Notes under the pieces: generated by a model
Told to the model about the DNA's origin: nothing
What the model saw: only the letters and a program-made list of their open reading frames with translations
The model's database searches: none
Origin: Candidatus Zixiibacteriota bacterium
Lineage (GTDB): Bacteria > Zixibacteria > MSB-5A5 > UM-FILTER-46-8
DNA: 48,846 bases
Direction of reading: 5' to 3'
Assembly: GCA_014730175.1 (NCBI GenBank)
Contig: WJIR01000223.1
Span: 1 to 48,846, forward strand
Translations under genes and position numbers: made by a program
Shown: positions 6,683 through 44,019 of the stretch, piece by piece
Numbering within the stretch: position 1 is the first letter of the stretch
Layout of the letters: the number at the start of each line of letters is the position of its first letter

Positions 6683-7656
6683 TATTCTACCGAAATTATT
6701 TCAGCACCTCCAGCCGGTTTACAGGATATATAGCGCAACTCGCCGATTTGATGCAGTATATTCTTAATAACCTCTTTAGAATCTCCTTGTTTGCACAAAA
6801 CAATAACATTGGAACCTGCATCGACCGTGAAATAAGCTTGTATGCCCTTCATTTCACGAATGGTTCGAATTGCCCTAATAATTCTAAAGGTTGACTCATT
6901 CCAGTACAAAAGCGGGGGACGCGATGCCATCATACAGCAATGCATAGCAAGCGCATTTTCTTCCATTATGCCGCCGATTGCTGCAAAATCATCTTCTTTA
7001 ATTGCGGACAGCATCTTCCCGTAATCCTCGCGGGCTTGCTTCACCCAACTCGAATAATAAGGCGAAGTCTCCGCGCAGTGATGCATACCGAACGATGAGG
7101 GCGTGTCCTTTTCCTCGGAATGAGCCAGTAATACTATCATGCTCCACGGAACATCTTGCGGCGTTTTCAGCAGTTTCGCAGCCGGATCTTTGCTGAGCGG
7201 GAAAGCCGATAAACCTCCGGTAATAGAACGCGCCGCCGAACCGCTCCCCTGACGAGCCAATCTTGATAACTCCCTGTTGGAAAGCTTTCTTTCTGAAAAC
7301 CCGCTAAGAGCCTTAGCAAGCGCTGCGAAACCGGATGCGCTCGATGCCAGACCGGATGCGGTTGGAAAGCCGTTCTTCGATTCCACCAGATAACTGCCAG
7401 TGACTAATCCTCTTTCCCGCCAGAGATCAAGATATCTCACCAATCGATAATTCACATCGCCGGAAGTTTCAACATCATTAAGAATGAAGCGATCGCAGGA
7501 TTCTTCGGTGCGCGTTATTGCTGTTTCCGTGGTAAGTTTATTCAGAGCGAGTGAGATAGAGGGAGTGGCGGGAATATTTCCCGCCGTTTCTCGTTTTCCC
7601 CAATATTTTACTAAAGCGATATTAGAATATGCCCGGGCGATCACCCGCCGTATCAC
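6682..7656 (-). CDS. mvaD: Diphosphomevalonate decarboxylase
   Basis: SNIALVKYWGKR, FPTASGLASSASGFAAL, ARQGSGSAARS and YFTVDAGSNV. Confidence 0.95.
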   Translation of the reverse strand: MIRRVIARAYSNIALVKYWGKRETAGNIPATPSISLALNKLTTETAITRTEESCDRFILNDVETSGDVNYRLVRYLDLWRERGLVTGSYLVESKNGFPTASGLASSASGFAALAKALSGFSERKLSNRELSRLARQGSGSAARSITGGLSAFPLSKDPAAKLLKTPQDVPWSMIVLLAHSEEKDTPSSFGMHHCAETSPYYSSWVKQAREDYGKMLSAIKEDDFAAIGGIMEENALAMHCCMMASRPPLLYWNESTFRIIRAIRTIREMKGIQAYFTVDAGSNVIVLCKQGDSKEVIKNILHQIGELRYISCKPAGGAEIISVE

Positions 7657-9959: not shown

Positions 9960-11029
9960 ATTCCTTGTTTATTGAGCCATCCGAAGTTCAAAAGCCACTC
10001 TCTCAGCTCACCGGTGTATATCCTGGGAACCTGCTTAAGTTTGGATAAATCGGCGGCGCCTGTCAAAAGCATAGCTGCCTTTAGCTCATGTATCATTTGC
10101 TCCATAAATTCGGTAGCTCCTTCTTTGCCTCTATCAAGAAAACTAAGTAATATAGGGCGGGCGAATCCGGCGATATCCGCCCCCACAGCGATAGCTCGCG
10201 CTGCATCCAGACCGTTTTCAATTCCACCTGAGGCTACTACACAGGTATTCTCGTTTTGAATTCTGTGTGCTGCAATAAGACTGAATGCGGTCGGTATTCC
10301 CCAATCCGAAAAGGTTTTACCGGTCTTTCTGAGGAGTTTGTCCGCCGCCCGGTACATCTCCACTTTGGTCCACGATGTTCCGCCGGCGCCGGATACATCT
10401 ACATATTTAATCCCTATCTTTGATAATTTCTTCAAACTCTCAGGATCTATCCCTGCCCCTGTTTCCTTAACCAGCACCTTGCCGTTTATTTTGTCATTTA
10501 ATGCAGCCAATGCATCGAGCAAGCCGCGAAAATCCCTGTGACCTTCATCCTGAATCAATTCCTGTGCCACGTTCAGATGAACGCAGATTCCATCAGCTTC
10601 GATATCATTCATTAATCCAATTATAGAATCTAATGGATACTCACGCAACTCACCTGCGCCGATGTTTCCAAGCAGGACGCCGTCGGGTATCCGTTTGCGA
10701 ACTGCGAAATCATCTTTCATCTCCGGGTGGCGAAATATCACTCGCTGACTGCCCACACCGAATGCGATACCGAACTCCGACGCGGTCTCCGCCAGTCCGC
10801 GGTTCATCTCCCCGGCGAACTCCGCTCCGCCCGTCATGCCAGTGATCATCAGCGGATAACTCAGCTTTTTTCCGAAGAATTCAACCTCGGTATCGATATC
10901 GTTGATATCCAACTCCGGAAGGGCGCAATGCAGCAGAAAGATATCGTCCAGCATGGTGCTCCCGCGGTGCTTTACTTCTTCCTCGGCGACAATTCGTAAA
11001 TGCTCCGATTTCCGCTTGGATATGGTCAC
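9956..11029 (-). CDS. fni: Type 2 isopentenyl-diphosphate delta-isomerase (FMN-dependent)
   Basis: RKSEHL, ITGMTGG, GVGSQR, HLNVAQE, VKETGAG, DVSGAGGTSW and ASGGI. GTG start. Confidence 0.96.
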   Translation of the reverse strand: MTISKRKSEHLRIVAEEEVKHRGSTMLDDIFLLHCALPELDINDIDTEVEFFGKKLSYPLMITGMTGGAEFAGEMNRGLAETASEFGIAFGVGSQRVIFRHPEMKDDFAVRKRIPDGVLLGNIGAGELREYPLDSIIGLMNDIEADGICVHLNVAQELIQDEGHRDFRGLLDALAALNDKINGKVLVKETGAGIDPESLKKLSKIGIKYVDVSGAGGTSWTKVEMYRAADKLLRKTGKTFSDWGIPTAFSLIAAHRIQNENTCVVASGGIENGLDAARAIAVGADIAGFARPILLSFLDRGKEGATEFMEQMIHELKAAMLLTGAADLSKLKQVPRIYTGELREWLLNFGWLNKQGI

Positions 11030-29851: not shown

Positions 29852-30100
29852 AGTTCTCTCCCTCGGAAGAATTTTATGAGGTATACATTTATCGAAATAA
29901 AATATCACTTTTCTGCAAAGCTGCAAATCAAGCTAATTTCCAGCCTTCAGTCACTTGAATAAAAATATACAACATTTTTATCAATTTGTCACGGTATTAT
30001 TCTCAATTCCCTTGCTTTCATAAAGAAATCCCGCAGGATGTTAATTTAGTACAATAATAAATCCGTAGAAATCGATGTATCTTACAATATATTCAACTTT

Positions 30101-30254
30101 GATTATTCATAAATTTCATAATCGGTAGCGGAAGCCTTGCGCTTCCGGTGTTTCATTGTAATCTTCAATTCCGCTCCGTAAATGTTCTACGTCTATTGAG
30201 CTCCCGAAGGACAAGCCTTCGGCTACCGATTCATGTCTTTTGTGAGTTATCCGG
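30101..30254 (-). repeat. Family A repeat, copy 3 (most regular copy)
   Basis: Plus strand: GATTATTCATAAA..ATCGGTAGCGGAAGCCTTGCGCTTCCGG...CCGAAGGACAAGCCTTCGGCTACCGAT..TTTTGTGAGTTATCCGGG, i.e. two GTAG-hairpins in inverted orientation. Confidence 0.85.
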
Positions 30255-30288
30255 GTTAGCAATATATCAAAATCGATGCGGCGAAAAG

Positions 30289-30816
30289 CTATCGGAGCAT
30301 ACTTCGTCTTCGCTTCTTCTTTTTAGGTTTCTTCTCTTTTGGCGGAGGTTCGGGAGGCGGTACAGGCTCATCAACCACATGCGTATCGGCAAGCCGATCC
30401 TGTACTGGTGTATCATTAAACTTGTAATAACGGTAAACGCTGTAACCACATTGCAAACCGGAGACTATCAAACCGAATGCTCTCTTGATGGAAGTACCCA
30501 GAGTAATCTTTTTAGCGCCATGGGATTTTACTCTAATTTTTATAATATTTTTCCCGATAGTTTGGCCGTTCCAGAAGAAATTAGTCAGAACGGAATAAAG
30601 GAAGAAAGCAGCCACAAAAATCAAAAGATAACCATACCATCCCCCCGGATAATATGTTTCTACCTCGTATGTTAGAGTTCCCCCGCCTCTGAAATACCAT
30701 TCTACTATTCCAATAATAGCCAGTAGTATATATAGCACAATGAGATTGAGAACGGCATCGATAGCAAAGGCTGTAGCTCGTTGTTTGAAACTGGCAGGTT
30801 TTTCCGTATCATTCAT
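30289..30816 (-). CDS. RDD-family membrane protein
   Basis: ASFKQRATAFAID, GQTIGKNIIKIRV, KRAF and QDRLADTHVV; 4-bp overlap with glmM. Confidence 0.88.
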   Translation of the reverse strand: MNDTEKPASFKQRATAFAIDAVLNLIVLYILLAIIGIVEWYFRGGGTLTYEVETYYPGGWYGYLLIFVAAFFLYSVLTNFFWNGQTIGKNIIKIRVKSHGAKKITLGTSIKRAFGLIVSGLQCGYSVYRYYKFNDTPVQDRLADTHVVDEPVPPPEPPPKEKKPKKKKRRRSMLR

Positions 30817-32171
30817 TGTGTTAGCAGCGCTTTCTTAACTGTGTCTATTAATTCCTGTGCTTCACTTTTTCCGGGCGCCTCTGCTATGACGCGTGATATC
30901 GGTTCAGTGTTCGACGCCCTTATGTGTATCCATTTATCTTTATATTCAAACTTAAACCCATCATCCGAGTTCAATTTCGCATCGGTAAAAGCCGATATTA
31001 GCCTCCTTTTCTTTTTCTCGATATCCTCTTTTGTAATATCAACCTTTCCCTTTATCATCACATAAGAAGGAATCCCCGCGACAGCCTCCGATACCGTCTT
31101 TTTAGTTGTAGCAAGATATGATAATATCAGCGCTATACCGACTGCACCGTCTCTTCCGTACAGCAAATTGGGATAAATAACACCGCCATTCCCTTCTCCA
31201 CCAATTACACCTTTTGCGGACTTGAGCTTTAGGGATACATTGATCTCCCCGACTTTAGTCCTGTGAACCTTAACGCCATAACGGGAGGCGATATCGTCGA
31301 TCATGCGCGATGTTGATAGATTTGCGGCAACTGCTCCTTTCTGGTGCGAAAGGATGTAATCTACCGCGAAAGCGAGTGTATATTCTTCTCCGATCGCTTT
31401 ACCGTTTTCGTCAACAATTGCCAGACGGTCTGCGTCGGGATCGTGCGCGAAGCCGATATCGCATCCATTGTCTTTAACAGCCGTTGATAATTTCCGCAGG
31501 TTAGTCGGAACCGGTTCAGGCCCTCGCCCGAATTTCCCGGTCGGCTCACAATTCAAGCAGATCACACGACATCCCAGTTTCTTCAACAATTTCGGGGATA
31601 GTAAAGCTCCGGCGCCGTTTACACAATCCAGAGCGACTTTGAACTTCCGGTTCTGTACAGCACGTGTTCTGACTGCGTCCAATTTCATTATCTTATCGAT
31701 ATGAAATTGTATGAACTCCTCTTTATAAATCCTACCCAGCCGATTGTGCGGCTTGTATGCAAATTCCGCGCTTTTAAAGATTTCCAGCAGTTTCTCACCC
31801 TCTGTGGAACTCAGAAACATCCCTTTGGAATTAAGCAGTTTTAACGCATTCCATTCCGGAGGATTATGAGATGCGGTGATGATTATTCCCCCTGCGGCTT
31901 TCATTTTTTTAACCGCCAATTCGACAGTAGGGGTGGGGCAGATCCCCAAATCGATGATATCTCTGCCGCAGCCGATCAAACCGGCGCAAACAGCGGGAAT
32001 AATCATCCTTCGGGACGGACGTGTATCCGAGCCAATTATGATTTTACCGCTTTTACAGAAGGTGCCAAAGGCAGCCCCAAACCGTACCGCTGTTTCGGGA
32101 GTCAAGCCGTCTTCTGCTCCGACCACGCCGCGGATTCCCGACACTGAGATTAGAAGTTTTTTTGAATTCAT
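30813..32171 (-). CDS. glmM: Phosphoglucosamine mutase (alpha-D-phosphohexomutase family)
   Basis: SVSGIRG, ITASHNP, DPDADR, GGEGNGG and RASNTEPI. Substrate specificity (GlmM versus PMM/PGM) is inferred. Confidence 0.8.
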   Translation of the reverse strand: MNSKKLLISVSGIRGVVGAEDGLTPETAVRFGAAFGTFCKSGKIIIGSDTRPSRRMIIPAVCAGLIGCGRDIIDLGICPTPTVELAVKKMKAAGGIIITASHNPPEWNALKLLNSKGMFLSSTEGEKLLEIFKSAEFAYKPHNRLGRIYKEEFIQFHIDKIMKLDAVRTRAVQNRKFKVALDCVNGAGALLSPKLLKKLGCRVICLNCEPTGKFGRGPEPVPTNLRKLSTAVKDNGCDIGFAHDPDADRLAIVDENGKAIGEEYTLAFAVDYILSHQKGAVAANLSTSRMIDDIASRYGVKVHRTKVGEINVSLKLKSAKGVIGGEGNGGVIYPNLLYGRDGAVGIALILSYLATTKKTVSEAVAGIPSYVMIKGKVDITKEDIEKKKRRLISAFTDAKLNSDDGFKFEYKDKWIHIRASNTEPISRVIAEAPGKSEAQELIDTVKKALLTQ

Positions 32172-32317
32172 TGTTATAGCCCTTATTCAATATTCTCAGG
32201 TAAATATAGCCTTTAAACCCGATCTTTGCAATTTTTTATCAATTAAGTGGATTCTGAAGAAAGTATCTTGTATTTTCCCATCGATTTAAATATCCAAGCA
32301 AAATGAAGGAGTTTATC

Positions 32318-33301
32318 ATGGCGATTTTGTTGAGTAAGAAAGATGTTGCTGATGTTTTAACCATGCCGGATACGATAGATATTCTGGAGAAAGCGTTCAT
32401 CGATCATAAGAACGGGCAAGTAGTGATGCCGGTAAGGCTAAACATACCTGAACCGGATCACTCCGGTATTTCTCTGTTTATGCCCTGTTATCTAAAAGGT
32501 CTGGAAGCGCTGGGAATAAAGACGGTGACAGTGTATAAAGATAATCCCGCCAAATATAATATGCCGACAGTTTTGGGTACGATAACCCTGCTGGACAACA
32601 AGACCGGAAATACACTGGCGGTGATGGATGCCGGCTATCTCACCGGTATGCGCACCGGTGCGGTTGCCGGTCTGGCAACCAAGTACCTCGCTCGGCCTAA
32701 TTCCAAAGTTATGGGGCTGCTGGGGGCGGGTGTCATGGCAAAATTCCAGCTTATGGCTGTCACCGCAGTAATTAAACTGGATAAGGTGAAGGTATTTTCC
32801 ATTGACAAACCGGAGAAACAGAAACAATTCAAGGAACTGATGGAACCGGCTGTCGGTACCAGCATCGAATTCGTAGATTCGGCGCAAAAGGCTGTAGCAG
32901 ATAGCGATATCGTCACACTGATCACTTCGGCTAAGGACCCGATAATCGATGGTGATTGGATCTCGCCCGGAACACATATCAACGGAGTAGGGTCACACGC
33001 GCCGACATTCCGCGAACCTGATACCAAAACCATTAAAAGGTCGAAAGTTGTTTGTGATTCTATCGAAGCCTGCAAAGCTGAGGCAGGGGATTTTATCATC
33101 CCGATCCATGACGGAGAGTTGGATGATTCGTTGTTCAAAGCCGAGCTGGGCGACGTGGTTACCGGTACGAAAGTAAGGACAGCCGATGATGATGTCACAT
33201 TCTTTAAGTCCGTCGGTTTGGCGTTACAGGATATATCGGTTGCCCATCACATTTACAGGAAAGCAGTGGAAGCCGGCAAAGGAATGCAATTTGAATTTTA
33301 A
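32318..33301 (+). CDS. Ornithine cyclodeaminase / mu-crystallin family protein (possibly archaeal-type alanine dehydrogenase)
   Basis: LFMP, GIKTVTVY..NP, LTGMRTGA, GAGVMA, PGTHINGVGS and FKSVGLALQD; AAGGAG RBS before ATG 32318. Confidence 0.9.
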   Translation: MAILLSKKDVADVLTMPDTIDILEKAFIDHKNGQVVMPVRLNIPEPDHSGISLFMPCYLKGLEALGIKTVTVYKDNPAKYNMPTVLGTITLLDNKTGNTLAVMDAGYLTGMRTGAVAGLATKYLARPNSKVMGLLGAGVMAKFQLMAVTAVIKLDKVKVFSIDKPEKQKQFKELMEPAVGTSIEFVDSAQKAVADSDIVTLITSAKDPIIDGDWISPGTHINGVGSHAPTFREPDTKTIKRSKVVCDSIEACKAEAGDFIIPIHDGELDDSLFKAELGDVVTGTKVRTADDDVTFFKSVGLALQDISVAHHIYRKAVEAGKGMQFEF

Positions 33302-33403
33302 TGCACAAATGTGGTTGCAGGCGGGAACAAATGTAAAATATGCCGGTTAATTTTTGGAATTTGATAATTTAATTAATGCTAATTAACAAAAAAAGGAGCT
33401 TTC

Positions 33404-34285
33404 ATGAGAAAGATTGCGATTGTATTGATGTTTGTGCTGGCGCCGTCAATTGTCTTAGCGCAAGGAGAATGGAAACTGTCAGGGGATTTATCTCTGAATG
33501 TAACCCAAAATGCATACAGTGATAGCTGGACCGGGGGAGAAGCCGGTACGGTTTCCTGGGTATCGATAGCTAATATGATTGCCGAAAAGCAATTATCGCC
33601 GAAATACCATTGGCGGAACACCGGGAAATTTTCGTTCGGACAAATCCACAATCAGGATCCCGAGACCAACGATTGGGAAAAACCGGAGAAATCTACCGAT
33701 AAGATCGATATCGAATCGGTTTTGAAAATGACGTTGGGTGCGGTGGTGGATCCGTATGTTGCTTTCAGATTGGAAAGCCAGTTCCTGGATAATTCCGTAC
33801 CGGAGGTTAAGAGGTTGATTAATCCGATTCTTTTGACCGAGTCTGCAGGCGCAAGCCGTACATTGTATAAAGAAGAAGAAAGAGGGGAAGTGATTACCCG
33901 CTTGGGTTTGGCAATAAGACAGCGCATCGATAGGACGGTGGTATCTATAGAACCCGAAGAAACCAGCACCGAGACTACTACGGACGGCGGTTTGGAATGG
34001 GTCACCGATGTTAATTATGTAATCACGCCGGAGAAGTTGAGATACGAAAGTAAACTTTCCGTTTTTCAGGCTTTCTTTAACTCCGAATCGGACGAACTCG
34101 AGGGCCAGCCGAATGAAGATTATTGGAAGTCACCAGATCTAAACTGGGAAAACATAATCACCGCCAGTATCAATCAGTATGTACAGGTTTCCCTTTATAC
34201 CCAGTTATTATATGATAAGGAAATCGATAAGAGAGGAAGGTTTAAAGAGACTTTGGCTCTGGGCGTAACATATAAATTATTCTAA
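33404..34285 (+). CDS. DUF3078-like outer-membrane beta-barrel protein
   Basis: Signal peptide; LNVTQNAYSDSWTGGE, KSTDKIDIES, NWENIITASINQY, LLYDKEID; C-terminal LGVTYKLF barrel signature. Confidence 0.8.
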   Translation: MRKIAIVLMFVLAPSIVLAQGEWKLSGDLSLNVTQNAYSDSWTGGEAGTVSWVSIANMIAEKQLSPKYHWRNTGKFSFGQIHNQDPETNDWEKPEKSTDKIDIESVLKMTLGAVVDPYVAFRLESQFLDNSVPEVKRLINPILLTESAGASRTLYKEEERGEVITRLGLAIRQRIDRTVVSIEPEETSTETTTDGGLEWVTDVNYVITPEKLRYESKLSVFQAFFNSESDELEGQPNEDYWKSPDLNWENIITASINQYVQVSLYTQLLYDKEIDKRGRFKETLALGVTYKLF

Positions 34286-34290
34286 TTTTT

Positions 34291-35110
34291 GGGTAGCATT
34301 CCGCAGACAAGAATGTCGGCTCTACTTTCGTCAGGAGGTCGGACATTCTTGTCCGACATAACAAATCCATAGCCGAAGGTTTACGTGCCTATGGCGTGCT
34401 TGTCCTTCGGTGAACATCGGGAGGCGGGACATACATGTCCCACGATGGGCGGCATACTCAAACCTGTCTGGGCATACCCTTATTGTTGTGCCGTCGGGCG
34501 CCCTCACCCGACAGCAATTGAATTCCCTTCTTCAGAGGGGTGGATTCGCCCCGCGAAGCGCGGGAGGAAATCGGGGTGTGTTATATTATCGTGTTGTCCT
34601 CGGATTTCGTGTGCGGCAATCTGGCGCCACGATAGACTCCCTCATTCCCTAACCCCTTCTCCCACTGAATGGGAGAAGGGGAACTGAGTGGAGATCTAAC
34701 AATTCTTAAAATCATTTTTATCCGTCTTTAGTTCCATCTCCCTGAGGAGGGAGAGGGTGTCCCGCGAAGCGCGGGACGGGTGAGGGAGTTTTCCTTCTTT
34801 CCTTCTCCTTGACGAGTGAGAGGGTGGATTCGCCCCGCGTTTCGCGGGGCTAAGACGGGTGAGGGTGTCCCCGCGCGGTAGGTCATTACAATGCCGTCGG
34901 ATGGGGGCACCCGACAGCACGACATACATCAGCGCTGGAGCGCTGATCGGCGGAATTAGCATAACCCTCGGGCTTCACCCCGCGTTCCGCGGGACGAAAC
35001 GATCCGTCTCCAGAGGGGAATAAATCTCGGCAGCAAGCAGCCTACCTACCAGCGGAATCCATGTCAGGGCGTTGTTAACCCTGAGCTATGCGCTTTACGC
35101 GCCTGATGGG
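34291..35110. repeat. Dense mosaic of REP-like palindromic units between convergent genes
   Basis: GTCGGACATTCTTGTCCGAC; family A REP with an insert at 34369-34410; family B units at ~34520-34582, ~34812-34870 and ~34965-35025; CCCCTTCTCCC..GGGAGAAGGGG; GGGAGAGGG..CCCGCGAAGCGCGGG..GGGTGAGGG. Confidence 0.8.
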
Positions 35111-35148
35111 CTTGCAAGCTATAACAGTTTAAAATGTTGGAATTTATT

Positions 35149-37050
35149 TTAATCTTGTAATGCGGAGAGTTTCTCCCGTATTAATTTGCCGGGGATAGCG
35201 CCGCGGAGTCGTCGCATGGCTTCCCCCATCAGAAAACGCTCCCTCTTTTCGGGATCTCTCAGTTGATTCTCTATAGTAATAATTTCGCTGAGGATTGAAT
35301 CGAGTTGCTCTTCGCTGACTGCAGGGACTATTTCATCTATTGCTTCCTGAGGGTCGTAATCTTTCACGCAAATAGCCTTCAGTATATCCAGCGTACTTTC
35401 GCGATGGAATATACCGTCACCGAAAAGTTGCGCTAAAATGAGCAACCTATCGTCAGACAGGTTAATGGCGCCAAAATCCCTGCGATGTAGATAAGTAAAA
35501 TATTCCACAATAACCTGAGCAGCCCACTTTGGATTTCCACTTATCCCGGCCATACGTAGGAAAATCCTGTATCTGGGATTGGTTACGAGATGGTCGATAA
35601 GATAATCAGGCAAACCCATCTCCTTCATGGTAACCCGCCGATCCCAGGGGAGATCCGGCACTATCTCCCTTAAGCTTTCGACTCGTTCTATGTCTATCTC
35701 TATGGGAGGATGATCGGTGTCGGGATACATTCTATCGGGTCCGGGGAGGAGGCGTTCGAAATCGGAATAACGTTCGTTGAGAGCCATATTGCGAGTTTCG
35801 GGCGGGACTCCATGGATGGCTTCCCGACAGCGGATCGCTATTTCTTCTAATGCAGTGTTCACATCTTGACGGGGACCCCAGGTAATAATAGTGGCATCAC
35901 CATCCTCTGCATCGAGGGAGCGACGTATGTCTTCCCATTCTTTATCCGGTATTCCCAATGACATTCTGTTCATGCGATGAGCGATATTGGGCATTTTATC
36001 CAAACATGCTATCACCCGAACACGTCCGGCGATCTCATCTGCAAAAATCCTCTCAGGGAATATATATTTCTCCATCAATCCCCGGAAGCCTTTGATCACA
36101 ATAGCGCTAACCACTCCGCCTTGCTCCACCGCTTGATTGCCGACGAATTCAGGTGAGCGTGCGAGATTTGCTGTCGCATCCGTTGTGGAATACGCGTAAT
36201 TACTGTCGCTGATACCACGCTCCTTTATTTCATCACGCAGATTCAGCAACGCTTTTTGCCTGAGGGCTTCAAAATGCGTTAATGCGGGGATGTGACTAAT
36301 CTTATCCACTCCTTTAATTTCAACACGCGATCCTCCCGCAATGGAAACATTAACATCCTGACGTGCTGCACCGATCCCCCGCCTGACCAACCCGGAGATT
36401 CGATTGGTTTCCGCCAAAAGCCAGGTAACCTCAAAAGCCTCCTGAGGAGAATATAATTCCGCATCGGTTATGACCTCAACTAAAGGGATCGACAATCTGT
36501 CTGTCCGAAAAATAACGTTATGGCCGACGTTATCAACTTCGCGGCAGGAATCCTCCTCGATATTCACCTGCGGGATTTTGATCCTACGGTACTTATATGG
36601 AATCCAGCCATCAGTTCCGATAACCGTAGTGCGTTGAAAACCGGTGGGGATGGAACCATCAAGGTATTGCTTGCGGGATATATGAGCTTCGTCAACAATG
36701 TTGCACTGAAAAAGCAGGGCGAGTCTTATCCCTATCTCAACAGCCTGCTGATTTATTGGAAACGGCGGAGAATCATCGAGCTCATAGGTGCATACACGGT
36801 TGTTCAGGATTTCGTATATTATCTCTTTGCGGGTTTTCTTCTCCATCAGGGCAGTGGGATCGTATTCTCCCATCTCCGAGAGCGTGGGGCGCATGTGGCG
36901 CAGCACCCGTGCATCGGGAGGATCATCGACCAGCCCCACCGGACAATGACAGAATAGTTTTTGTTTAGTATCGAGCTGCTGATGAATCTCAATACCACAA
37001 CGGAATCCGATTCCGGCATAATCGATGTCGTTGGTTTTCCACAAACTCAT
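35149..37050 (-). CDS. gatE: Glu-tRNA(Gln) amidotransferase subunit E (archaeal-type)
   Basis: GIEIHQQL..KLFC.CP, LRHMRPTLSEMGEYD, RKQYLDGSIPTGFQRT, IEEDS, DRLSIPLVEV, RRGIGAARQDVNVSI, GVPPETR and PGPDRMYPDTD. At 633 aa it includes the GatE-specific insertion absent from GatB. Confidence 0.95.
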   Translation of the reverse strand: MSLWKTNDIDYAGIGFRCGIEIHQQLDTKQKLFCHCPVGLVDDPPDARVLRHMRPTLSEMGEYDPTALMEKKTRKEIIYEILNNRVCTYELDDSPPFPINQQAVEIGIRLALLFQCNIVDEAHISRKQYLDGSIPTGFQRTTVIGTDGWIPYKYRRIKIPQVNIEEDSCREVDNVGHNVIFRTDRLSIPLVEVITDAELYSPQEAFEVTWLLAETNRISGLVRRGIGAARQDVNVSIAGGSRVEIKGVDKISHIPALTHFEALRQKALLNLRDEIKERGISDSNYAYSTTDATANLARSPEFVGNQAVEQGGVVSAIVIKGFRGLMEKYIFPERIFADEIAGRVRVIACLDKMPNIAHRMNRMSLGIPDKEWEDIRRSLDAEDGDATIITWGPRQDVNTALEEIAIRCREAIHGVPPETRNMALNERYSDFERLLPGPDRMYPDTDHPPIEIDIERVESLREIVPDLPWDRRVTMKEMGLPDYLIDHLVTNPRYRIFLRMAGISGNPKWAAQVIVEYFTYLHRRDFGAINLSDDRLLILAQLFGDGIFHRESTLDILKAICVKDYDPQEAIDEIVPAVSEEQLDSILSEIITIENQLRDPEKRERFLMGEAMRRLRGAIPGKLIREKLSALQD

Positions 37051-38441
37051 AGCATATAATCCAATAAGAAATCTTTAACTTCTGGTAATCCCCCTTGTAG
37101 CACCAGATAACTGTCGGGTCTTTCTCTTTCCGTTATCTCGCCATTAATAGGAGTCAACATCAGCTTCTTAACCTCTTCTCTGTCTCTGGTCTGCCCCAAT
37201 GCCCAGGCGAGTTTCATATAAGCAGTCTCCGGCAGCATATTGGCTAAAGGTACGATTCCACAGTCCATGAGATAACGACCATTATCATAAACAAACATCT
37301 GCACAAATCCCCAGAGAGTTTGAACCGTCATATATATGTGTACACCTTTACCGATAGCCCAGCGGATAACATTATAGAGGGGGCGATTGATATGACCAAG
37401 TCCGGTGCCTGCGATCACGATACCTTCGTAACCGGCTTCAACTATGGAGCGGATAAGGTTTTCCTGCATGTTGGGGTAGTAATAAAGTATCATAACTTTA
37501 TCGCTGAATGTGGGGATTATTTTGAATTCCTCGTTTGGCGTCGACCGGGGACGATAGTCGCTTCTTAGAGGATTTACTCCCTTCTGAACATCAACAGTTG
37601 CTAACGGTATATCACCGAGCGTACGAAAAGTACTGCGGTACGATGAATGCATTTTACGCACACGTGTCCCACGATGCAGGAGTCCGTACTGGTCTGAAGT
37701 CGGTCCAAACATGCAAACCATAACCTCGGCGATCGGACCGGTGGCGGCTATGGCGGCGTTTATGAGATTGCGGGCGGCATCGGATGAAGGACGATCGCTG
37801 GAACGCTGTGAACCGGCTAATACGATCGGTACCGGAGGATTCTGAATCATGAATGTTAATATCGAAGCTGTGTGATGCATTGTGTCGGTACCATGACCGA
37901 TAATAATGCCATCCGCGCCGTTGTTTATTTCTTTGTAGATGTTTTCGGCGAGTGTTATATATTGCTCCGGTCCCATATCCTCGGAAAAAATCCCGAAGAG
38001 CTTTTTAGTTTTCAAGTTACAAATATCAGCTAATTCGGGAACGGCGCCGAAAAGTTCGCCGGGGGAGAAGGCCGGTATGACCGCTCCGGTGGAATAGTCC
38101 AGACGCGACGCAATGGTACCGCCGGTGCCGAACAGAAATATGTTCGGTTTACTTTCATCGTACGGAAATTCCTGCTCGCGTATTCCGTAATGACCCTCCT
38201 GCCGACCGAGGTATTCTATGGATTTGATACGTGCGGCTTTTACTCCGATATTGTAACCGCTGTCGAGTTTGATAACAATATGCAGCGAATCCGCCATACT
38301 ATTGCGGGGTAATAAAACGCCTTCATAATCGCCGGATTCCGATTCGACCTTGATTCTATCCCAGACGCCGATATTGAATTTAGTTAAGAGTTCCAAGCTA
38401 ACACCACGATAACCGGTCGTGGATTTTTCGCCCGTAGTCAA
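37047..38441 (-). CDS. gatD: Glu-tRNA(Gln) amidotransferase subunit D (archaeal-type)
   Basis: N-terminal GatD barrel (YEGVLLPR..IVIKLDSGYNIG), TGGTIASRLDYSTGAV, HGTDTM, GSQRSSDRPSSDA, RKMHSSYRSTF, GTGLGH and MLPETAYMKL; TTG start; 4-bp overlap with gatE. Confidence 0.95.
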   Translation of the reverse strand: MTTGEKSTTGYRGVSLELLTKFNIGVWDRIKVESESGDYEGVLLPRNSMADSLHIVIKLDSGYNIGVKAARIKSIEYLGRQEGHYGIREQEFPYDESKPNIFLFGTGGTIASRLDYSTGAVIPAFSPGELFGAVPELADICNLKTKKLFGIFSEDMGPEQYITLAENIYKEINNGADGIIIGHGTDTMHHTASILTFMIQNPPVPIVLAGSQRSSDRPSSDAARNLINAAIAATGPIAEVMVCMFGPTSDQYGLLHRGTRVRKMHSSYRSTFRTLGDIPLATVDVQKGVNPLRSDYRPRSTPNEEFKIIPTFSDKVMILYYYPNMQENLIRSIVEAGYEGIVIAGTGLGHINRPLYNVIRWAIGKGVHIYMTVQTLWGFVQMFVYDNGRYLMDCGIVPLANMLPETAYMKLAWALGQTRDREEVKKLMLTPINGEITERERPDSYLVLQGGLPEVKDFLLDYML

Positions 38442-38544
38442 TTGTACACCTGCTCGTTTAACACTATATAATGAGGGTGGTATATCAGAAATACCACCCT
38501 TCCAATCAAAATTCGAAAATGTTAATAAATTACCCGATTACGGT

Positions 38545-39675
38545 CTACTGGAGTACGTAGATCTTTTTCTCAGCGCACATATCTCTGAGAATTTTGGGCC
38601 ATACGGTGACGCTGCACTCACCGAGATGGGCTTTCCTTAATAGATACATATATGTACGCGATTGTCCGATTCCGCCGCCAACCGAAAGTGGAATATCGTT
38701 ATTCATTATCGCCTTATGGTACGGGAAGTCCAGAAAATCGAGCTGTCCGGTTATCTCAAGCTGCTGCTTTAGAGTTTCCGGAGTTACCCTGATCCCCATT
38801 GATGTCAACTCATGACGTCTTCTGGTGACGGGATTCCAGACCAGGATGTCGCCGTTAAGCCCATGCATCAGGCGGCCGTTTTTCTCTATGGTTTCGGTTA
38901 CCCAATCGTCATAGTCCGCGGCGCGCATTTCATGCGGGTATCCATCTTCCAAGACCCAGCCGATACCGATTATGAATACTGCCGGATATTTCTGCAGGAT
39001 TTCGGTCTCCCTCTGCTTACGCGGTAAATCCGGGAACATTTCCAAAATCTCTTCTGCATGCAGGAAAGTGAGTTCCTCGGGGATGTCGGGATACTTGTCG
39101 GTTTTCAGTTTCGGGAAGTTTTCCTGGGCATGAATACCGGCTCCCCGGATAACTTTCCATATCTTCTGTACGATATCCTTCAGGAAATCAAGGTTACGGT
39201 CCTCTTTGACCATTACTTTTTCCCAATCCCACTGGTCAACATAGGAGCTGTGATCGTGGTCAAGGAAATAGTCTTTGCGGACAGCTCTCATGTCCGTATA
39301 AAGCCCTTCGCCGGTCTCCATCCCGAACTGCTTGAGTGCCATCCGTTTCCATTTAGTAGCTGCTTGAACCACCTGTGCATCTATCGGATGTTTATCATGG
39401 TCATTGGAAATATGGAATTCGATAGGAGTTCTGGAACCGTCGCGATCCAGATAATCGTTCACTCCGCTTTCGCGGTCAACGATCAATGGACATTCGACGC
39501 GAATAAGGTTCAGCTCCTTGCACAGATTGTCCTCAATGTAATCCTTAACGCACTTAATAGCTTCTTGCGTTTCCTTGGGATTGAGCAGCGGTTCGTAGTC
39601 AGTCGGTAATATCTTCTCGATATCCTCGTAATTACCTATGCCGGGACCGGCAAGATCAGCTTTTTTATCTGCCAT
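38545..39675 (-). CDS. asnA: Aspartate-ammonia ligase (asparagine synthetase A)
   Basis: [58 protein letters not shown] and [10 protein letters not shown]. Confidence 0.95.
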
Positions 39676-39734
39676 GTTTTACCTCATTTAAAGACCGAGC
39701 TTCTTGTTTACGCTATATGTATGAATAATAAAAA

Positions 39735-40700
39735 TCACAATTTTTCTGTCAAAATCGGTAATATCTCCAGAGCGTTACCGACTATTCCCCAGGTGGCAAC
39801 CTTGAAAATCGGCGCATCCGGATCCTTATTAATCGCTACGATATACTTGGAAGACTGCATCCCTGCCAGATGCTGGATTGCGCCGGAAATACCGCAAGCG
39901 ATATACAGCTTAGGATTAACAGTTTTTCCGGTCTGCCCGACCTGACGTTTGTACGGTACCCATTCCGCATCCACAATGGCGCGGGATGCGCCGGCAGCCG
40001 CTCCCAGCTTTTTAGCCAGATCCTCAACCAATTTGTAGTTATCGGCTTCCTTCAGTCCCCTTCCGCCGGAAACGATTATATCCGCTTCGGTTAAAGGAAC
40101 CTCCCCTCCTCCTTCCGAAACCTTCTCAACCACCTTCGCCTTGCTTTCGTACTTGGAGGAATCAAAGGCGAAATCGGCAGCCTCGGCTTCACGGGACAGT
40201 CCCTCTTCCGGAACGAATGCTTTGGGTCTTAGTGTAATAATCTTCACGTTTTCAGTATTGAAGCCGAATTTGAGGATAGCATTTCCACCGTAACCGGGGT
40301 GTTCGACTACGATCTTGTCGCCGTCAAAATTAATTGCGGTGGCATCGGGAATCAGGGCGCCATTGCTGAGCGCAGCCAATCTGCCAAAAAGGGCTTTGCC
40401 GTAGAAAGTTGCGCTTCCGATGACGTGATTAATTGACTCCTGAGATATCATATCGGCGAGAACAGCGCCATATATTTCATCATTATAATGCTTAAGCACG
40501 CTATCCTGGCAGACTAACACTCGATCCGCGCCGCCTTTGCCGCATTCGGAAGCCAGCGCCGAAACGGCATCGCCAAGCAACGCTGCAATTACCTTGGAAC
40601 CGTACTCATCGGCTATTCTACGAGCCTCGGAAAGACATTCGAAACTAAGAGGCGAGAGTTGCCCCTCTTTTACCTCACAAAATACTAATACGTTAGACAC
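39735..40700 (-). CDS. etfA: Electron transfer flavoprotein alpha subunit
   Basis: [44 protein letters not shown] and [11 protein letters not shown]; GTG start. Confidence 0.95.
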
Positions 40701-40790
40701 GATATATTCTCCATTCTTTTCAATTCAAAAAGCGAAATAAAATACTATATGATAATGAAGTCAAACGGTTTTCACCTATTTTTGGTCAAA

Positions 40791-40822
40791 TTGTGAAAAA
40801 ATTCTCGTGATAATTTGCACAA
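40791..40822. promoter_or_regulatory. Two overlapping Rex-like operator candidates upstream of etfA
   Basis: TTGTGAAaaaaTTCTCGT (40791-40808) and TCGTGATaattTGCACAA (40805-40822) each match 11 of 14 positions of TTGTGAA-N4-TTCACAA. Confidence 0.4.
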
Positions 40823-40939
40823 AGCGCAAAAACTATCTGTTAAATTTCGATGTTGAAGAAATATGGACTTGTCAACAAGCGGAATATGGTCTAAAATTGG
40901 ATAGCATTATGGTGGAAAATTACTTGCTGGAGATATCTC

Positions 40940-42019
40940 TTGGAAATTTTTAATTCTATTTTTGAGGTGATCAAGCCGCTGATACCAAGCAGCGCGGTTA
41001 TCCTCGGTTTCATATTACTACTGATAATAATCCGGTTTATTGGAGAGCGAAAGTACGCAAGTATAGAAGGATACAAAATAAAGCGACAGATTATTGTACT
41101 CCTACTATCATTTGCAGGATTACTGGCAATAATCATCGCGCTGCCTATTGGAGATTCAATCCGCGGACAATTGCTAAGTCTGATAGGGATTCTTCTCAGC
41201 GCCGCAATTGCGCTTTCCGCAACCACATTTATAGGCAACGTTATGGCCGGGATAATGTTACGGGCTGTAAGAAGCTTTAAGCCAGGCGATTTTATTCGGA
41301 TTGGGGAGCATTTTGGTCGAGTTTCGGATCAAGGATTATTGCATGTGGAAATCCAAACCGAAGAACGAGATCTTACCACTATGCCAAACCTATATCTCGT
41401 CACCAATCCGGTCAAGGTGGTGCATTCTTCCGGTACTTTTATAACCGCTACAGTTTCTTTAGGTTATGATATCCCGCGAAGGAAGGTGCAGGAGCTGCTT
41501 GCTAAAGCCGCAGAAGAAGCGGAACTCGGCGAACCATTTGTAACTATCGTGGATTTGGGCGATTTTTCGGTGACCTATAAGGTAGCAGGATTGCTGGAAG
41601 ATGTTAAGCATTTTATTACGGCAAGGTCTAAATTAAGGGAGAAAATACTGGATGTGCTTCATGAGAATGGAATAGAAATAGTCTCACCTACCTTTATGAA
41701 TACCAGGAGTTTTACCGAACAAAAGAAATTCATACCACATATTGAACGAACGATTTCCGCAGAAGATAAAGAGGAAGTCGAAAGCGAGATAGAAAAACTC
41801 GTTTTTGATAAAGCGGATGAAGCCGCTTCCATGGAGGAGCTTAAATCAAAGCAAAAAGCTGTAACGGATGAAATAGAAAAAATAAAAGAGAAGTTAAAAC
41901 AGGAGAAGGACAAACAGCGGCAGGAGAGACTTAATTCGATGAAAGAGGAGCTGGAAAGAAAACAGGAATGGCTTGGTAAATTAATCAAACATAAGGAAGA
42001 AAACAGCAAGGAATCTTAA
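40940..42019 (+). CDS. MscS-family mechanosensitive channel with a C-terminal coiled coil
   Basis: Three TM helices, GNVMAGIMLR..FKPGDFIRIGEHFGRV, MPN, GIEIVSP, and a long E/K-rich tail. Confidence 0.88.
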   Translation: MEIFNSIFEVIKPLIPSSAVILGFILLLIIIRFIGERKYASIEGYKIKRQIIVLLLSFAGLLAIIIALPIGDSIRGQLLSLIGILLSAAIALSATTFIGNVMAGIMLRAVRSFKPGDFIRIGEHFGRVSDQGLLHVEIQTEERDLTTMPNLYLVTNPVKVVHSSGTFITATVSLGYDIPRRKVQELLAKAAEEAELGEPFVTIVDLGDFSVTYKVAGLLEDVKHFITARSKLREKILDVLHENGIEIVSPTFMNTRSFTEQKKFIPHIERTISAEDKEEVESEIEKLVFDKADEAASMEELKSKQKAVTDEIEKIKEKLKQEKDKQRQERLNSMKEELERKQEWLGKLIKHKEENSKES

Positions 42020-42064
42020 TTTAATCTGATAGCTATCTACGATGTAGAAAACGGAGTACAAAAA

Positions 42065-43147
42065 ATGAATCGATTTTCCAAACAAGGCTCTGAGAAGGTT
42101 GGTTTAAAGCCGGGCGAGATTGTTTATGTTGGTAGAGAAAGAGATGCTAAGACTTTTATAAAAGTAATGGATTATGATGCTACGAACCTGCGGGAGATAG
42201 AATTAACTTCAATCGAAGATTGCTTTGCTTACAGAGACACCGAAAGTGTTAGCTGGATAGATATAAATGGAATCCATGAAGTTGACGTAATAGAAAAACT
42301 CGGCTCGCATTTTGATATCCATCCTTTGATTCTGGAGGATATCGTGAATACCAATCAGCGCCCGAAAATGGAAGAATCGGATGGGATCATATTCGTTGTT
42401 TTGAAAATGCTGCATTCAGAAGAAAAGACGACGACTTTAAGCTCTGAACAGGTAAGTATATTATTCGGTAAGAACCTGGTTATAACACTGCAGGAGCAGG
42501 AAGGCGATGTCTTCGACTATATACGTGAAAGGATCAGAAAAACGATTCCGCGGGTGCGCTTTTTAGGTTCGGATTACCTGGCATACGCAATAGTCGATGC
42601 AATAGTGGATCATTATTTCCTGGTTCTGGAAAACCTCGGCGAACAGATTGAATCGCTGGAGGACAGACTGATTAATCAGCCGGAGAAATCAGACCTTGAT
42701 ATAATTCATGCTTTGAAAAGGGAATTGCTGTTTATGAGGAAAAGCGTCTGGCCCCTGCGGGAGTTAGTGGCAGGATTGGAAAGGTCGGAATCGGATTTAA
42801 TTCATGACTATACTCGTCCCTATATCAGGGATTTATATGAGCATATTATTCAGGTAATCGATAGTATCGAAACCTTCCGCGATATGGTTTCAGGATTACT
42901 GGACCTTTACTTGACAAGCGTCAGCAATCGAATGAACGAAGTAATGAAAGTTCTCACCATCATCGCAACCATCTTCATACCGCTTGGGTTCTTGGCGGGA
43001 GTCTACGGTATGAATTTCAATACCTCTATTAGCCCCTGGAACTTACCCGAGCTGGATTTCAGATTCGGTTATCCCTTGTTTTGGACTATCGTCTTGTTGG
43101 TAGCAGGAGGATTGTTCTGGCTATTTAAAAGAAAAAAATGGTTATAA
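42065..43147 (+). CDS. corA: Magnesium/cobalt transporter CorA
   Basis: HPLILEDI..QRPK, MNEVMKVLTIIATIFIP, YGMNF signature and KRKKWL end. Confidence 0.96.
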   Translation: MNRFSKQGSEKVGLKPGEIVYVGRERDAKTFIKVMDYDATNLREIELTSIEDCFAYRDTESVSWIDINGIHEVDVIEKLGSHFDIHPLILEDIVNTNQRPKMEESDGIIFVVLKMLHSEEKTTTLSSEQVSILFGKNLVITLQEQEGDVFDYIRERIRKTIPRVRFLGSDYLAYAIVDAIVDHYFLVLENLGEQIESLEDRLINQPEKSDLDIIHALKRELLFMRKSVWPLRELVAGLERSESDLIHDYTRPYIRDLYEHIIQVIDSIETFRDMVSGLLDLYLTSVSNRMNEVMKVLTIIATIFIPLGFLAGVYGMNFNTSISPWNLPELDFRFGYPLFWTIVLLVAGGLFWLFKRKKWL

Positions 43148-43251
43148 ATATCTATGCTATCCTACAACTGATTTAACTGATCCGGACTTAAACCGATAAA
43201 TATATAAGTATTTAGCTGCAAACCGCTAATCAGATCTCGGGGCATACCGCT

Positions 43252-44019
43252 ATGAATAATAATCGATTTGAATACTATAATGTCCACTCCATCGGCAAAC
43301 TGATAAGGAATATCGCCCACTCCTACAACAACTTAATAACCGGAATTATCGGATATTCCGATCTGCTGGAGGATAACGACGAATCCGGCATTGCAAAGTC
43401 CGTAATGAAGGCGGCTGAGAAAGCTCAGAGTTTGACCACCGAATTATCCTGTTTGGGCAGGAAATTGACCGATTGTCCCCACCGCGCCAATCTGAATGAA
43501 AGCCTTAAGAACAGAGAGGATTTTTTCAAAAAAATAGTAGGGGAATCATTGACTGTTAATTTCGTTTTGAAGGAAGGTCAAGAGATATCTATTAACTGCG
43601 ACCAGGAGCTTTTCTACGACGTCTTATTTCGTTTCCTGTTATCAATCAAGGATATATGCAAATCCGGGTGCGAGGTTCGTATCAGTACTGACAAATCCCA
43701 AACGCAAAAGACTGAAGGAGAACTGGCTATCGCGCTACCCGAATCCGAATATGGCGTGATCTCATTTATCGGCCAAAGCGATTTATCGGAAGACGAGCTT
43801 AAGAAAAAATGCGCCATAAGATGTGATCTTCTTTCGGGTGAGAGTATCAATGACCTTAGTTTCCGCTCAACTCTGGGATTGCTGAAATATCTCAATGCCT
43901 GTTACGATTACACACTTAGAGATAAAAACGAAATTCTACTCGTGCTTTACTTTCCCCTGTTTCCCGTTGAAAAAGAGATTAAGCCAGACCCTATTGAGCC
44001 GGTAGCATCAAACGAATGA
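43252..44019 (+). CDS. Degenerate histidine-kinase-like protein (HisKA H-box kept, ATPase motifs eroded)
   Basis: IGKLIRNIAHSYNNLITGIIGYSDLL resembles the AHDFNNLLT.I.GY H-box; no recognisable N, G1, F or G2 boxes. Confidence 0.6.
   Translation: MNNNRFEYYNVHSIGKLIRNIAHSYNNLITGIIGYSDLLEDNDESGIAKSVMKAAEKAQSLTTELSCLGRKLTDCPHRANLNESLKNREDFFKKIVGESLTVNFVLKEGQEISINCDQELFYDVLFRFLLSIKDICKSGCEVRISTDKSQTQKTEGELAIALPESEYGVISFIGQSDLSEDELKKKCAIRCDLLSGESINDLSFRSTLGLLKYLNACYDYTLRDKNEILLVLYFPLFPVEKEIKPDPIEPVASNE

Follow-up and report, generated by a model that had tools for sequence, protein, structure and literature searches.

A native gatD-gatE pair from a separate, mostly bacterial branch of GatDE in a Candidatus Zixiibacteriota genome

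The gatD-gatE locus

The window, i.e. the whole stretch of 48,846 nucleotides analysed here (contig WJIR01000223.1), carries two overlapping genes for a GatDE-type amidotransferase. They belong to a branch that we will refer to as type 2. The features of the region are:

34286 to 35148, no strand: non-coding, repeat-rich stretch past the gatE stop (no long open reading frame; GC-rich palindromic units visible)
35149 to 37050, minus strand: gatE, type 2, kinase/transamidase subunit of 633 amino acids (NF003107, TIGR00134, Pfam)
37047 to 37050, minus strand: ATGA overlap of gatD stop and gatE start (direct sequence reading)
37047 to 38441, minus strand: gatD, type 2, asparaginase-like amide-donor hydrolase subunit of 464 amino acids, TTG start (NF003217, TIGR02153, Pfam)
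38545 to 39675, minus strand: asnA (aspartate-ammonia ligase), upstream neighbour of gatD (TIGR00669, 300.2 bits, cut-off 292.8)
39735 to 40700, minus strand: etfA, conserved bacterial neighbour anchoring gatDE in the family (Pfam ETF and ETF_alpha; followed by gatD-gatE in G001, G004 and L031)

A first-pass annotation of this DNA had read gatD and gatE as full-length and overlapping, and this holds: all the motifs that it quoted are found in the translations, and both proteins pass their profile cut-offs. The junction reads ...CTATGAGT..., in which the stop codon of gatD and the start codon of gatE overlap in ATGA, and the length and start of gatD are the same in relatives. GatE scores 507.9 bits on the NCBIfam model NF003107 (cut-off 456) and 449.4 bits on TIGR00134 (cut-off 319.55), and stays under the cut-off of all five GatB models (best 157.5 bits, cut-off 338). 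GatD reaches 497.3 bits on NF003217 (cut-off 310) and 482.2 bits on TIGR02153 (cut-off 324). It also exceeds the cut-off of the subfamily model TIGR00519 (362.1 against 260.5 bits), a match that it shares, like its catalytic residues, with type I L-asparaginases; it differs from these in scoring higher on the GatD equivalogs, in having a GatD_N domain and in being translationally coupled to gatE. Thus, the pair is of the GatDE type, as had been proposed, and is neither GatB nor a plain asparaginase.

In GatE, Pfam detects GatB_N (residues 18-457), GAD (306-401, weak at 24.9 bits) and GatB_Yqey (506-629, weak at 33.5 bits); in GatD, it detects GatD_N, Asparaginase and Asparaginase_C. Canonical archaeal GatDE, as represented by Methanothermobacter thermautotrophicus (2D6F) and Pyrococcus abyssi (1ZQ1), likewise consists of two subunits with the same domains, and the window GatE matches PDB GatE chains at E values of about 1e-97. 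Also common to type 2 and canonical GatDE are the Mg ligands, the asparaginase-type catalytic residues and a basic loop near the first tRNA pair. Residues T109, T185, D186 and K263 of GatD, which we take (partly from a passage in PMC2330236) to be these catalytic residues, are invariant in 105/105 type 2 rows and in 60/60 canonical GatD rows. In the case of GatE, H23, E165 and E192 align with His15, Glu157 and Glu184, given as Mg-binding residues of M. thermautotrophicus GatE in a passage of PMC2330236, and are invariant among 14 type 2 sequences.

GatE and the GatB of GatCAB, the usual amidotransferase of bacteria, are paralogues with the same chemistry. However, GatCAB uses the amidase GatA as glutaminase where GatDE has the asparaginase-like GatD and no GatC, and GatB lacks the insertion domain of GatE. 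The short basic loop near the first tRNA base pair reads VRRGIG in the window GatE and KVKRGLG in canonical GatE, against GNMEE-G in GatB; GatB has here a 3-10 turn with KMEE, together with a Lys-rich tail motif, and both are missing in GatE (PMC2811023). The tail of the window GatE retains the MG..M...RG core and the GatB_Yqey match. A structure model (ESM Atlas, pTM 0.84) aligns to a Thermoproteota GatE cluster with a TM score of 0.75, so the predicted fold is GatE-like. Both genes are under strong purifying selection, with dN/dS values against the sister genome of 0.058 for gatE and 0.048 for gatD.

Host and assembly context

The host is a true bacterium: the window encodes a GroEL scoring 880 bits, and T9SS sorting tails, which are characteristic of the FCB group (Fibrobacterota-Chlorobiota-Bacteroidota with allied phyla), occur on five of its proteins. 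The reading frame at 1086-2345 encodes AhcY and not MetK.

The source genome is binned from 328 contigs, at a completeness of 94% and an estimated contamination of 3.5%, and synteny with the sister genome G001 is broken in the repeat-rich stretch adjoining gatE (34286-35148): positions 27453-34285 correspond to its contig C11 and gatDE to its contig C35. Both points would fit an assembly chimera or archaeal DNA contamination, but this explanation is hardly credible, as either flank of the break is equally near to G001 (83-86% identity), the GC content is even throughout the gatDE region, the closest relatives of GatE and GatD are bacterial, and the order etfA-gatD-gatE is present in three other related assemblies (L028/G001, L129/G004 and L031). 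Short pieces of the stretch itself are found again on many contigs of G001 and of the related genome G004. Altogether, gatD-gatE is native to this bacterial genome and under selection, and the bacterial setting described in the first-pass annotation is real. As to asnA, it lies beside gatD only in the genus of the window, with no asnA between etfA and gatD in G004 or L031, and was rejected as a general functional partner of gatDE.

Type 2 GatDE as a separate branch

Type 2 GatDE was found at about 150 loci in more than 12 bacterial phyla and in a few Thermoplasmatota archaea. It is distinct from all canonical archaeal GatDE sampled, forming separate clades in the trees of both subunits (a quick tree and a FastTree tree). 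Identity between the window and canonical copies is 30-33% for GatE and 38-44% for GatD; across phyla, type 2 GatD is conserved at 56-70% identity. The sequence RMYPDTD marks type 2, as opposed to RMYPETD in the canonical enzyme, and type 2 hosts are mostly bacteria. The pair is a member of a separate GatDE branch living mostly in uncultured bacteria, and no one-off import. In 189 loci, the largest cluster of flanking genes was present at 14, and no recurrent tRNA or partner gene was found.

Our literature search found no description of bacterial GatDE, and passages of two 2022 reviews present GatDE as archaea-only (PMC9499178, PMC8762117). This signature of an archaea-only, sole route to Gln-tRNA fails here, with a bacterial host that has GlnRS and about 150 loci carrying the pair. 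Teaching treats GatDE as a signature enzyme of archaea, and a large clade that is mostly bacterial and occurs next to GlnRS and AsnRS calls for a redrawn history of how glutamine and asparagine are decoded.

Regarding tRNA recognition, the GatE tail motif GXXAXGX has previously been linked to tRNA discrimination. Scored with our own pattern, GxxAx[GSA] ahead of the hMG core, it was found in 0/140 type 2 rows against 66/100 canonical rows, and the supplementary alignments of PMC2811023 may define it more exactly. In the window, GatE reads EKRERFLMG where the motif is expected. The GAD domain was detected in 3/14 type 2 sequences against 10/13 canonical ones, and type 2 GatE shows its strongest divergence in the insertion and tail domains. 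Because the motif is missing and these domains have diverged most, a changed tRNA target is hinted at.

Other routes to Gln-tRNA and Asn-tRNA

The first-pass annotation had supposed that this lineage makes its Gln-tRNA by GatDE, possibly with an archaeal-like tRNA(Gln) or GluRS. Neither part is supported. A glnS gene is present; a contig end truncates it, and the remaining part reaches 534.6 bits and shares 94% identity with the complete GlnRS found in the sister genome. The tRNA-Gln is bacterial, with U1-A72 (not A1-U72) and G73, and the single GluRS is of bacterial type. The tRNA-Asn also appears, as read from the sequence, to start with U1-A72. GatB and GatA were not found in this genome (completeness 94%). 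Since AsnRS, two glutamine synthetases, AsnA and AsnB accompany GlnRS, the pair is dispensable for any textbook amidotransferase job. The fallback offered earlier, a repurposed GatDE, is now more likely.

Similar patterns were detected among other carriers. GlnRS, GatCAB or canonical GatDE accompanied type 2 in 45/50 sampled bacterial and 12/13 archaeal carriers. GlnRS without GatB, as in the window genome, is the commonest state among the bacterial carriers (24/50); neither was found in five, all metagenome-assembled genomes for which completeness was not given. Among the 38 carriers without GatB, 34 had an AsnRS over the cut-off. In the class of the window, 20/21 carriers have another route, or 21/21 when the cut glnS of G004 is counted. 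G004 was rejected as a GatDE-only genome on account of this glnS piece, which sits right at a contig end. As many as 14 of these 21 carriers have both GlnRS and GatCAB besides type 2. Among non-carriers of the class, GlnRS is equally common (13/20), and seven genomes of the class have GlnRS only, without any amidotransferase. In a comparison meant to tell discriminating from non-discriminating GluRS, no column of the alignment separates seven genomes with GlnRS and without amidotransferase from seven genomes without GlnRS.

Possible function of type 2 GatDE

From the retained residues and domains, we infer that the pair is still an active tRNA-dependent amidotransferase. As our best reading, held tentatively and at somewhat less than even confidence, the native type 2 GatDE would be an accessory enzyme of this kind and not the cell's route to Gln-tRNA, with Glu-tRNA(Gln) as its guessed substrate. 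Firstly, the single bacterial GluRS would mischarge the U1-A72 tRNA-Gln to Glu-tRNA(Gln). Secondly, GatD would free ammonia from Gln or Asn, and GatE would phosphorylate and then amidate the acidic aminoacyl-tRNA. Type 2 GatDE would in this way convert Glu-tRNA(Gln) as a second pathway or a clean-up step next to GlnRS, in place of GatCAB. A precedent is given in a passage of PMC4206432, according to which an amidotransferase is kept in some bacteria having GlnRS and AsnRS. The prevailing state among the bacterial carriers, GlnRS without GatB (24/50), also speaks for this reading. The substrate is a guess and the weak point of this reading. Three routes to one product, as in the 14 class carriers, are hard to explain by a role in Gln-tRNA alone; moreover, the seven class genomes that manage with GlnRS alone speak against the accessory role, as do four archaeal genomes in which canonical and type 2 GatE coexist.

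The near-constant presence of another route in bacterial, class and archaeal carriers alike could instead point to a new function that supplies neither Gln-tRNA nor Asn-tRNA, such as action on another acyl-tRNA or a tRNA-like molecule, or a tRNA-gated amidase. By contrast, GlnRS was found in 0/37 canonical-only archaeal genomes sampled, and both the strong conservation of GatD across phyla and the diverged tRNA-contacting domains fit this idea. Nevertheless, we regard it as unlikely: all catalytic residues and the layout for tRNA binding are retained, the 189 loci have no conserved partner gene or tRNA nearby, and ancestry alone could account for the co-occurrence, given that non-carriers of the class have GlnRS just as often.

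GatCAB provides a tRNA-dependent asparagine route in Thermus and Deinococcus. In a comparable manner, type 2 GatDE may have shifted to another tRNA target or taken on a further one, such as Asp-tRNA(Asn), alone or with Glu-tRNA(Gln), and open such a route. The absence of the tail motif throughout the 140 type 2 rows suggests this, and so do the asnA adjoining gatD in the window's genus, the apparent U1-A72 of tRNA-Asn and the coexistence with canonical GatDE in the four archaeal genomes. However, this proposal appears unlikely as well. AsnRS is present in most carriers without GatB (34/38), AsnA and AsnB make such a route unnecessary in the window genome, and asnA is not a conserved neighbour. 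In addition, GatE keeps the insertion domain, which a passage of PMC2330236 models as clashing with AspRS in a transamidosome.

That GatDE is nonetheless the lineage's own route to Gln-tRNA(Gln), with an archaeal-like tRNA or GluRS, would fit the failure to find GatCAB and the five bacterial carriers with neither GlnRS nor GatB, but is very improbable given the glnS gene with its 94% identical complete counterpart in the sister genome, the bacterial tRNA-Gln and GluRS, and the metagenomic origin and ungiven completeness of those five exceptions.

Apart from the accessory role in the window genome, a broader claim about the whole branch can be made, which we consider possible but rather doubtful: type 2 would be a so far overlooked tRNA-dependent amidotransferase family with a function of its own, which split from canonical GatDE, then spread in more than a dozen bacterial phyla and some Thermoplasmatota, and is kept beside GlnRS, GatCAB or canonical GatDE for a different tRNA or purpose. 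If this and the presence of GlnRS in archaea are true, the statements that GatDE occurs only in archaea and that archaea have no GlnRS would be overturned. The branch poses the question of a seemingly redundant yet strongly conserved enzyme, and offers a natural experiment on how an amidotransferase deals with the different first pairs, U1-A72 in bacteria and A1-U72 in archaea.

Searches for archaeal tRNA-Gln by BLAST with a bacterial tRNA-Gln query returned T-loop matches only, and a pattern of anticodon loop and T-loop (gaps of 15-17 bases, which misses 4-base variable loops) returned tRNA-Pro and chance matches only. In Thermoplasmatota, a bacterial-type GlnRS was observed alongside archaeal tRNA-Gln genes, which bears on the old claim that the archaeal tRNA-Gln bars the uptake of GlnRS.

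Identity of the gatD-gatE pair

The window is one entire contig of a bin of 3.59 Mb in 328 contigs (estimated 94.4% complete and 3.5% contaminated). The intact gatD-gatE pair described in the first-pass annotation was confirmed by equivalog scores, Pfam domains, kept catalytic residues and the ATGA overlap shared by the two open reading frames, which was read from the sequence. It is a native, intact and selected GatDE from a distinct clade. The features are:

37047-38441, minus strand: gatD, 464-aa ORF with a TTG start, over both NCBIfam GatD equivalog cut-offs
35149-37050, minus strand: gatE, 633-aa ORF, over both NCBIfam GatE equivalog cut-offs
34286-35148: non-coding, repeat-rich stretch of 860 nt with several GC-rich palindromic units (CCCGCGAAGCGCGGG-like)

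In detail, GatD scored 497.3 and 482.2 bits (cut-offs 310 and 324) and GatE 507.9 and 449.4 bits (cut-offs 456 and 319.55), and GatE stayed under cut-off on every GatB model in the profile search. GatD contains GatD_N and both asparaginase domains; GatE contains GatB_N, GAD and GatB_Yqey. H23, E165 and E192 of GatE align with His15, Glu157 and Glu184 of M. thermautotrophicus GatE (2d6f_C), which an excerpt of a review describes as Mg ligands required for activity (PMC2330236). In the GatD alignment, T109, T185-D186 and K263 are invariant in 105/105 rows of type 2, the separate and mostly bacterial clade that includes our pair, and in 60/60 rows of canonical archaeal GatDE. Against the sister genome of the same genus (G001), dN/dS was 0.058 for gatE and 0.048 for gatD. 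Judged by these sequence features, the pair is probably an active tRNA-dependent amidotransferase.

Distribution and phylogeny of type 2 GatDE

Among 41 genomes of the window's class, GatD was over cut-off in 21 and GatE in 18, with fragments in two more. With each GTDB species represented by a single genome, a motif scan gave 591 relatives from 599 candidate stretches. The best 80 of these 591 comprise 78 bacterial metagenome-assembled genomes and 2 Thermoplasmatota archaea. The bacterial ones bear titles, which are submitters' labels and may be wrong, of Ignavibacteria, Melioribacteraceae, Planctomycetota, Acidobacteriota/Aminicenantes, Myxococcota, Gemmatimonadota, Zixibacteria, Calditrichota, Cloacimonetes, WOR-3, Caldisericia, Fibrobacteres and others. 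When an archaeal type 2 protein was used as query, the next nearest sequences were again bacterial. A search by canonical GatE motifs (ARMYPETD, MRKIVIDG) gave best 80 matches that were all archaeal, from many phyla. The window's proteins share 38-53% (GatE) and 56-70% (GatD) identity with type 2 copies of other families, and 30-33% and 38-44% with canonical archaeal copies.

The GatE FastTree (248 rows, eight GatB sequences as outgroup) united 99 canonical rows in one clade (support 93), sister to a group made up of the type 2 clade (140 rows, support 99) and a long archaeal branch, locus L232. A quick IQ-TREE analysis (LG+C20 with PMSF, 46 rows) agreed with this split, with supports of 89 for canonical, 91 for type 2 plus L232 and 100 for type 2 alone. 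Within type 2, IQ-TREE showed an unresolved fork of three archaeal clades and a clade of all 14 bacterial rows with one archaeal row (support 88), whereas FastTree put three bacterial rows at the base; the trees therefore fix no direction of transfer between the domains. Fast evolution could have placed type 2 artefactually as sister of all canonical GatE. The same picture emerged from the GatD tree (type 2 clade of 105 rows, support 99; L232 as sister, support 100). Thus, the pair stands apart from GatB, as had been proposed, but belongs to type 2 and not to canonical archaeal GatDE. In the trees of both subunits, the L232 pair itself (contig C89 of G055) takes a place intermediate between the canonical and type 2 clades; it is 48% (GatD) and 32% (GatE) identical to the window's proteins, and its genome also has GlnRS.

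Most bacterial type 2 loci read gatE then gatD; the window's family has gatD first. Of the best 80 of 591 loci, 59 had a gatD in their flank. Beside type 2 loci there was no further conserved neighbour and no tRNA, the largest flanking-gene cluster covering 14 of 189 loci. GatDE is called archaea-only in excerpts of two 2022 reviews (PMC9499178; PMC8762117), the latter also with the wording ‘almost all archaea’. Our literature searches, with subscription journals outside their coverage, found no paper on bacterial GatDE. Public databases already auto-name such proteins GatD and GatE, so the bacterial sequences are on record, even if undiscussed.

Other routes to Gln-tRNA and Asn-tRNA

In the window's genome, glnS is present, GatB and GatA were not found in a search of the bin (94.4% estimated complete), and the single GluRS is of bacterial type. 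The GlnRS gene on contig C53 is truncated at the end of the contig; the part present covers model positions 1-307 with 534.6 bits (cut-off 425.8) and shares 94% identity with the full GlnRS of G001. AsnRS, a bacterial-type AspRS, two glutamine synthetases, an AsnA whose gene adjoins gatD, and an AsnB on contig C51 (509.7 bits, cut-off 267.1) are also encoded. With GlnRS, AsnRS, both glutamine synthetases, AsnA and AsnB, each textbook amidotransferase job is therefore already covered, and no known amidotransferase role is left in this genome for which GatDE would not be redundant.

More widely, genomes with type 2 nearly always have another route as well.

Co-occurrence of GatE forms with GlnRS and GatB (sampled archaeal genomes are interrelated, so that their counts are not independent)
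Window's class, 21 carriers: GlnRS and GatB, 14; GlnRS only, 3 (the window's genome, G001, G035); GatB only, 3; neither, 1 (G004)
Other phyla, 50 carriers: GlnRS in total, 39/50; GatB in total, 21/50; GlnRS without GatB, 24; both, 15; GatB only, 6; neither, 5 (genome completeness not given)
Archaea, 51 genomes from the phylum of G041, with GlnRS over cut-off in brackets: canonical GatE only, 37 (0); type 2 only, 6 (5); L232 form only, 1 (1); canonical and type 2, 4 (2); no GatE, 3 (3)

In the case of G004, a family-level relative, contig C34 ends inside a C-terminal piece of glnS, so this gene is probably cut and not absent. The 20 non-carriers of the class have GlnRS in 13 and GatB in 10; GlnRS is therefore common in the class with or without type 2. 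AsnRS was over cut-off in 34 of the 38 GatB-less carriers. In one relative (G012, contig C34, 17930-33844), gltX, glnS, gatE and gatD lie together within 16 kb.

GlnRS was over cut-off in 11/51 sampled archaeal genomes, and three more type 2-only archaea, reached via named loci, likewise have it. GatB was absent from all 13 archaeal genomes tested; GlnRS or canonical GatDE occurs in 12/13 type 2-bearing archaeal genomes. Six Thermoplasmatota loci (L326-L331, in G057, G074, G059, G041, G083 and G063) encode a GlnRS of bacterial type and full length (685-745 bits) that shares 63-69% identity with the G001 enzyme, and three of the 11 GlnRS-bearing genomes are without any GatE. Archaea are said to lack GlnRS in excerpts of the 2022 reviews (PMC9499178; PMC8762117); a literature search on archaeal GlnRS found nothing further.

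Protein differences and tRNA context

Type 2 shares with canonical GatE a short basic loop (VRRG and VKRG, respectively), where GatB of the bacterial GatCAB has a KMEE turn. According to an excerpt of PMC2811023, this loop faces the first tRNA base pair. The tail-domain motif GXXAXGX, which has a reported link to tRNA discrimination, is absent from type 2: a pattern of our own for it matched 66/100 canonical against 0/140 type 2 rows. In the alignment consensus its G and A each reach at least 80% of canonical rows. Pfam detected GatB_Yqey in 10/14 type 2 against 13/13 canonical proteins and GAD in 3/14 against 10/13. The domain-detection trend was alike in the ESM Atlas, where mostly bacterial GatE clusters exist.

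The sole assembled tRNA-Gln of the window's genome (anticodon CUG) reads UGGGAGA...UCUCCCA-G, thus U1-A72 with G73 and of bacterial type. ARAGORN drew its acceptor stem with one extra pair; the UUG isoacceptor was not found among the bin's tRNAs. The suggested archaeal-like tRNA-Gln or GluRS was not borne out. ARAGORN listed 42 tRNAs in the bin, among them an odd tRNA-Tyr (anticodon ATA) and a tRNA-SeC. In ten of 30 GluRS loci from the window's class (L341, L345, L348, L349, L350, L352, L353, L354, L356, L358), carriers and non-carriers of GatDE alike, gltX is followed on its own strand, a few hundred bases downstream, by a tRNA-Gln(CUG) with U1-A72 and G73.

In archaeal carriers, tRNA-Gln genes adjoin glnS and are of archaeal type (A1-U72, with A73 wherever the 3' end can be read). 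Both isoacceptors flank glnS in G057, one lies beside it in each of G074 and G059, and tRNA-Glu(CUC) adjoins it in G074, G041 and G063. Type 2, if it acts on tRNA-Gln, would therefore encounter A1-U72 in archaeal and U1-A72 in bacterial hosts. The A1-U72 tRNAs argue against type 2 being a GatDE merely refitted to U1-A72.

Possible roles

Tentatively, we favor that GatDE may work alongside GlnRS as an accessory or clean-up path for Glu-tRNA(Gln), a reading consistent with the kept catalytic residues and basic loop. A new function, which the near-constant presence of another route would suit and the kept catalytic residues speak against, appears rather doubtful. Somewhat less probable still is a changed or widened tRNA target, e.g. 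Asp-tRNA(Asn); the missing GXXAXGX motif would suit it, but the wide presence of AsnRS in GatB-less carriers speaks against it. The first-pass idea of GatDE as the lineage's sole route to Gln-tRNA, compatible with an intact pair in a bin where GatB and GatA were not found, failed on the GlnRS of the window's genome and is very improbable.

Genomic surroundings

That the gatDE region is a chimera is hardly conceivable, given etfA followed by gatD-gatE in related assemblies, both flanks near G001, and dN/dS of about 0.05. Window 35162-43399 is collinear with the separately assembled G001 locus L028 at 83-84%, and etfA then gatD-gatE recurs in two family-level assemblies (L129/L013 of G004, and L031). 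On the opposite side, 27453-34285 is 83-86% identical to G001 contig C11, so both sides of the break come from one lineage. The join itself differs between the two genomes; the synteny break falls within the non-coding 34286-35148, pieces of which recur on many G001 and G004 contigs. The nearest records bear the titles Ignavibacteria or Zixibacteria. Elsewhere the contig encodes bacterial proteins, including GroEL (880 bits) and five with T9SS sorting tails. Such tails typify FCB-group bacteria (Fibrobacterota-Chlorobiota-Bacteroidota and related phyla).

Several neighboring features were observed. The asnA gene (38545-39675, minus strand) lies between etfA and gatD in the window's genus only; the alignment to the G001 region (L028, 3843-3961) lacks about 350 nt, and the gene there may therefore be truncated or disrupted. 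A phosphoglucosamine mutase (30813-32171, minus strand; archaeal-type TIGR03990, 536.2 bits, cut-off 439, far above the bacterial GlmM model) adds another archaeal-type gene to this contig. A 768-aa ORF (7653-9959, minus strand; neighboring ORFs at 5768-11029) fuses a degradative-type HMG-CoA reductase to mevalonate kinase, so this bacterium has mevalonate-pathway genes. Finally, a repeat of ~160 nt at about 30100-30260, found over 40 times on G001 contigs in copies 80-86% identical, looks like a small mobile element.
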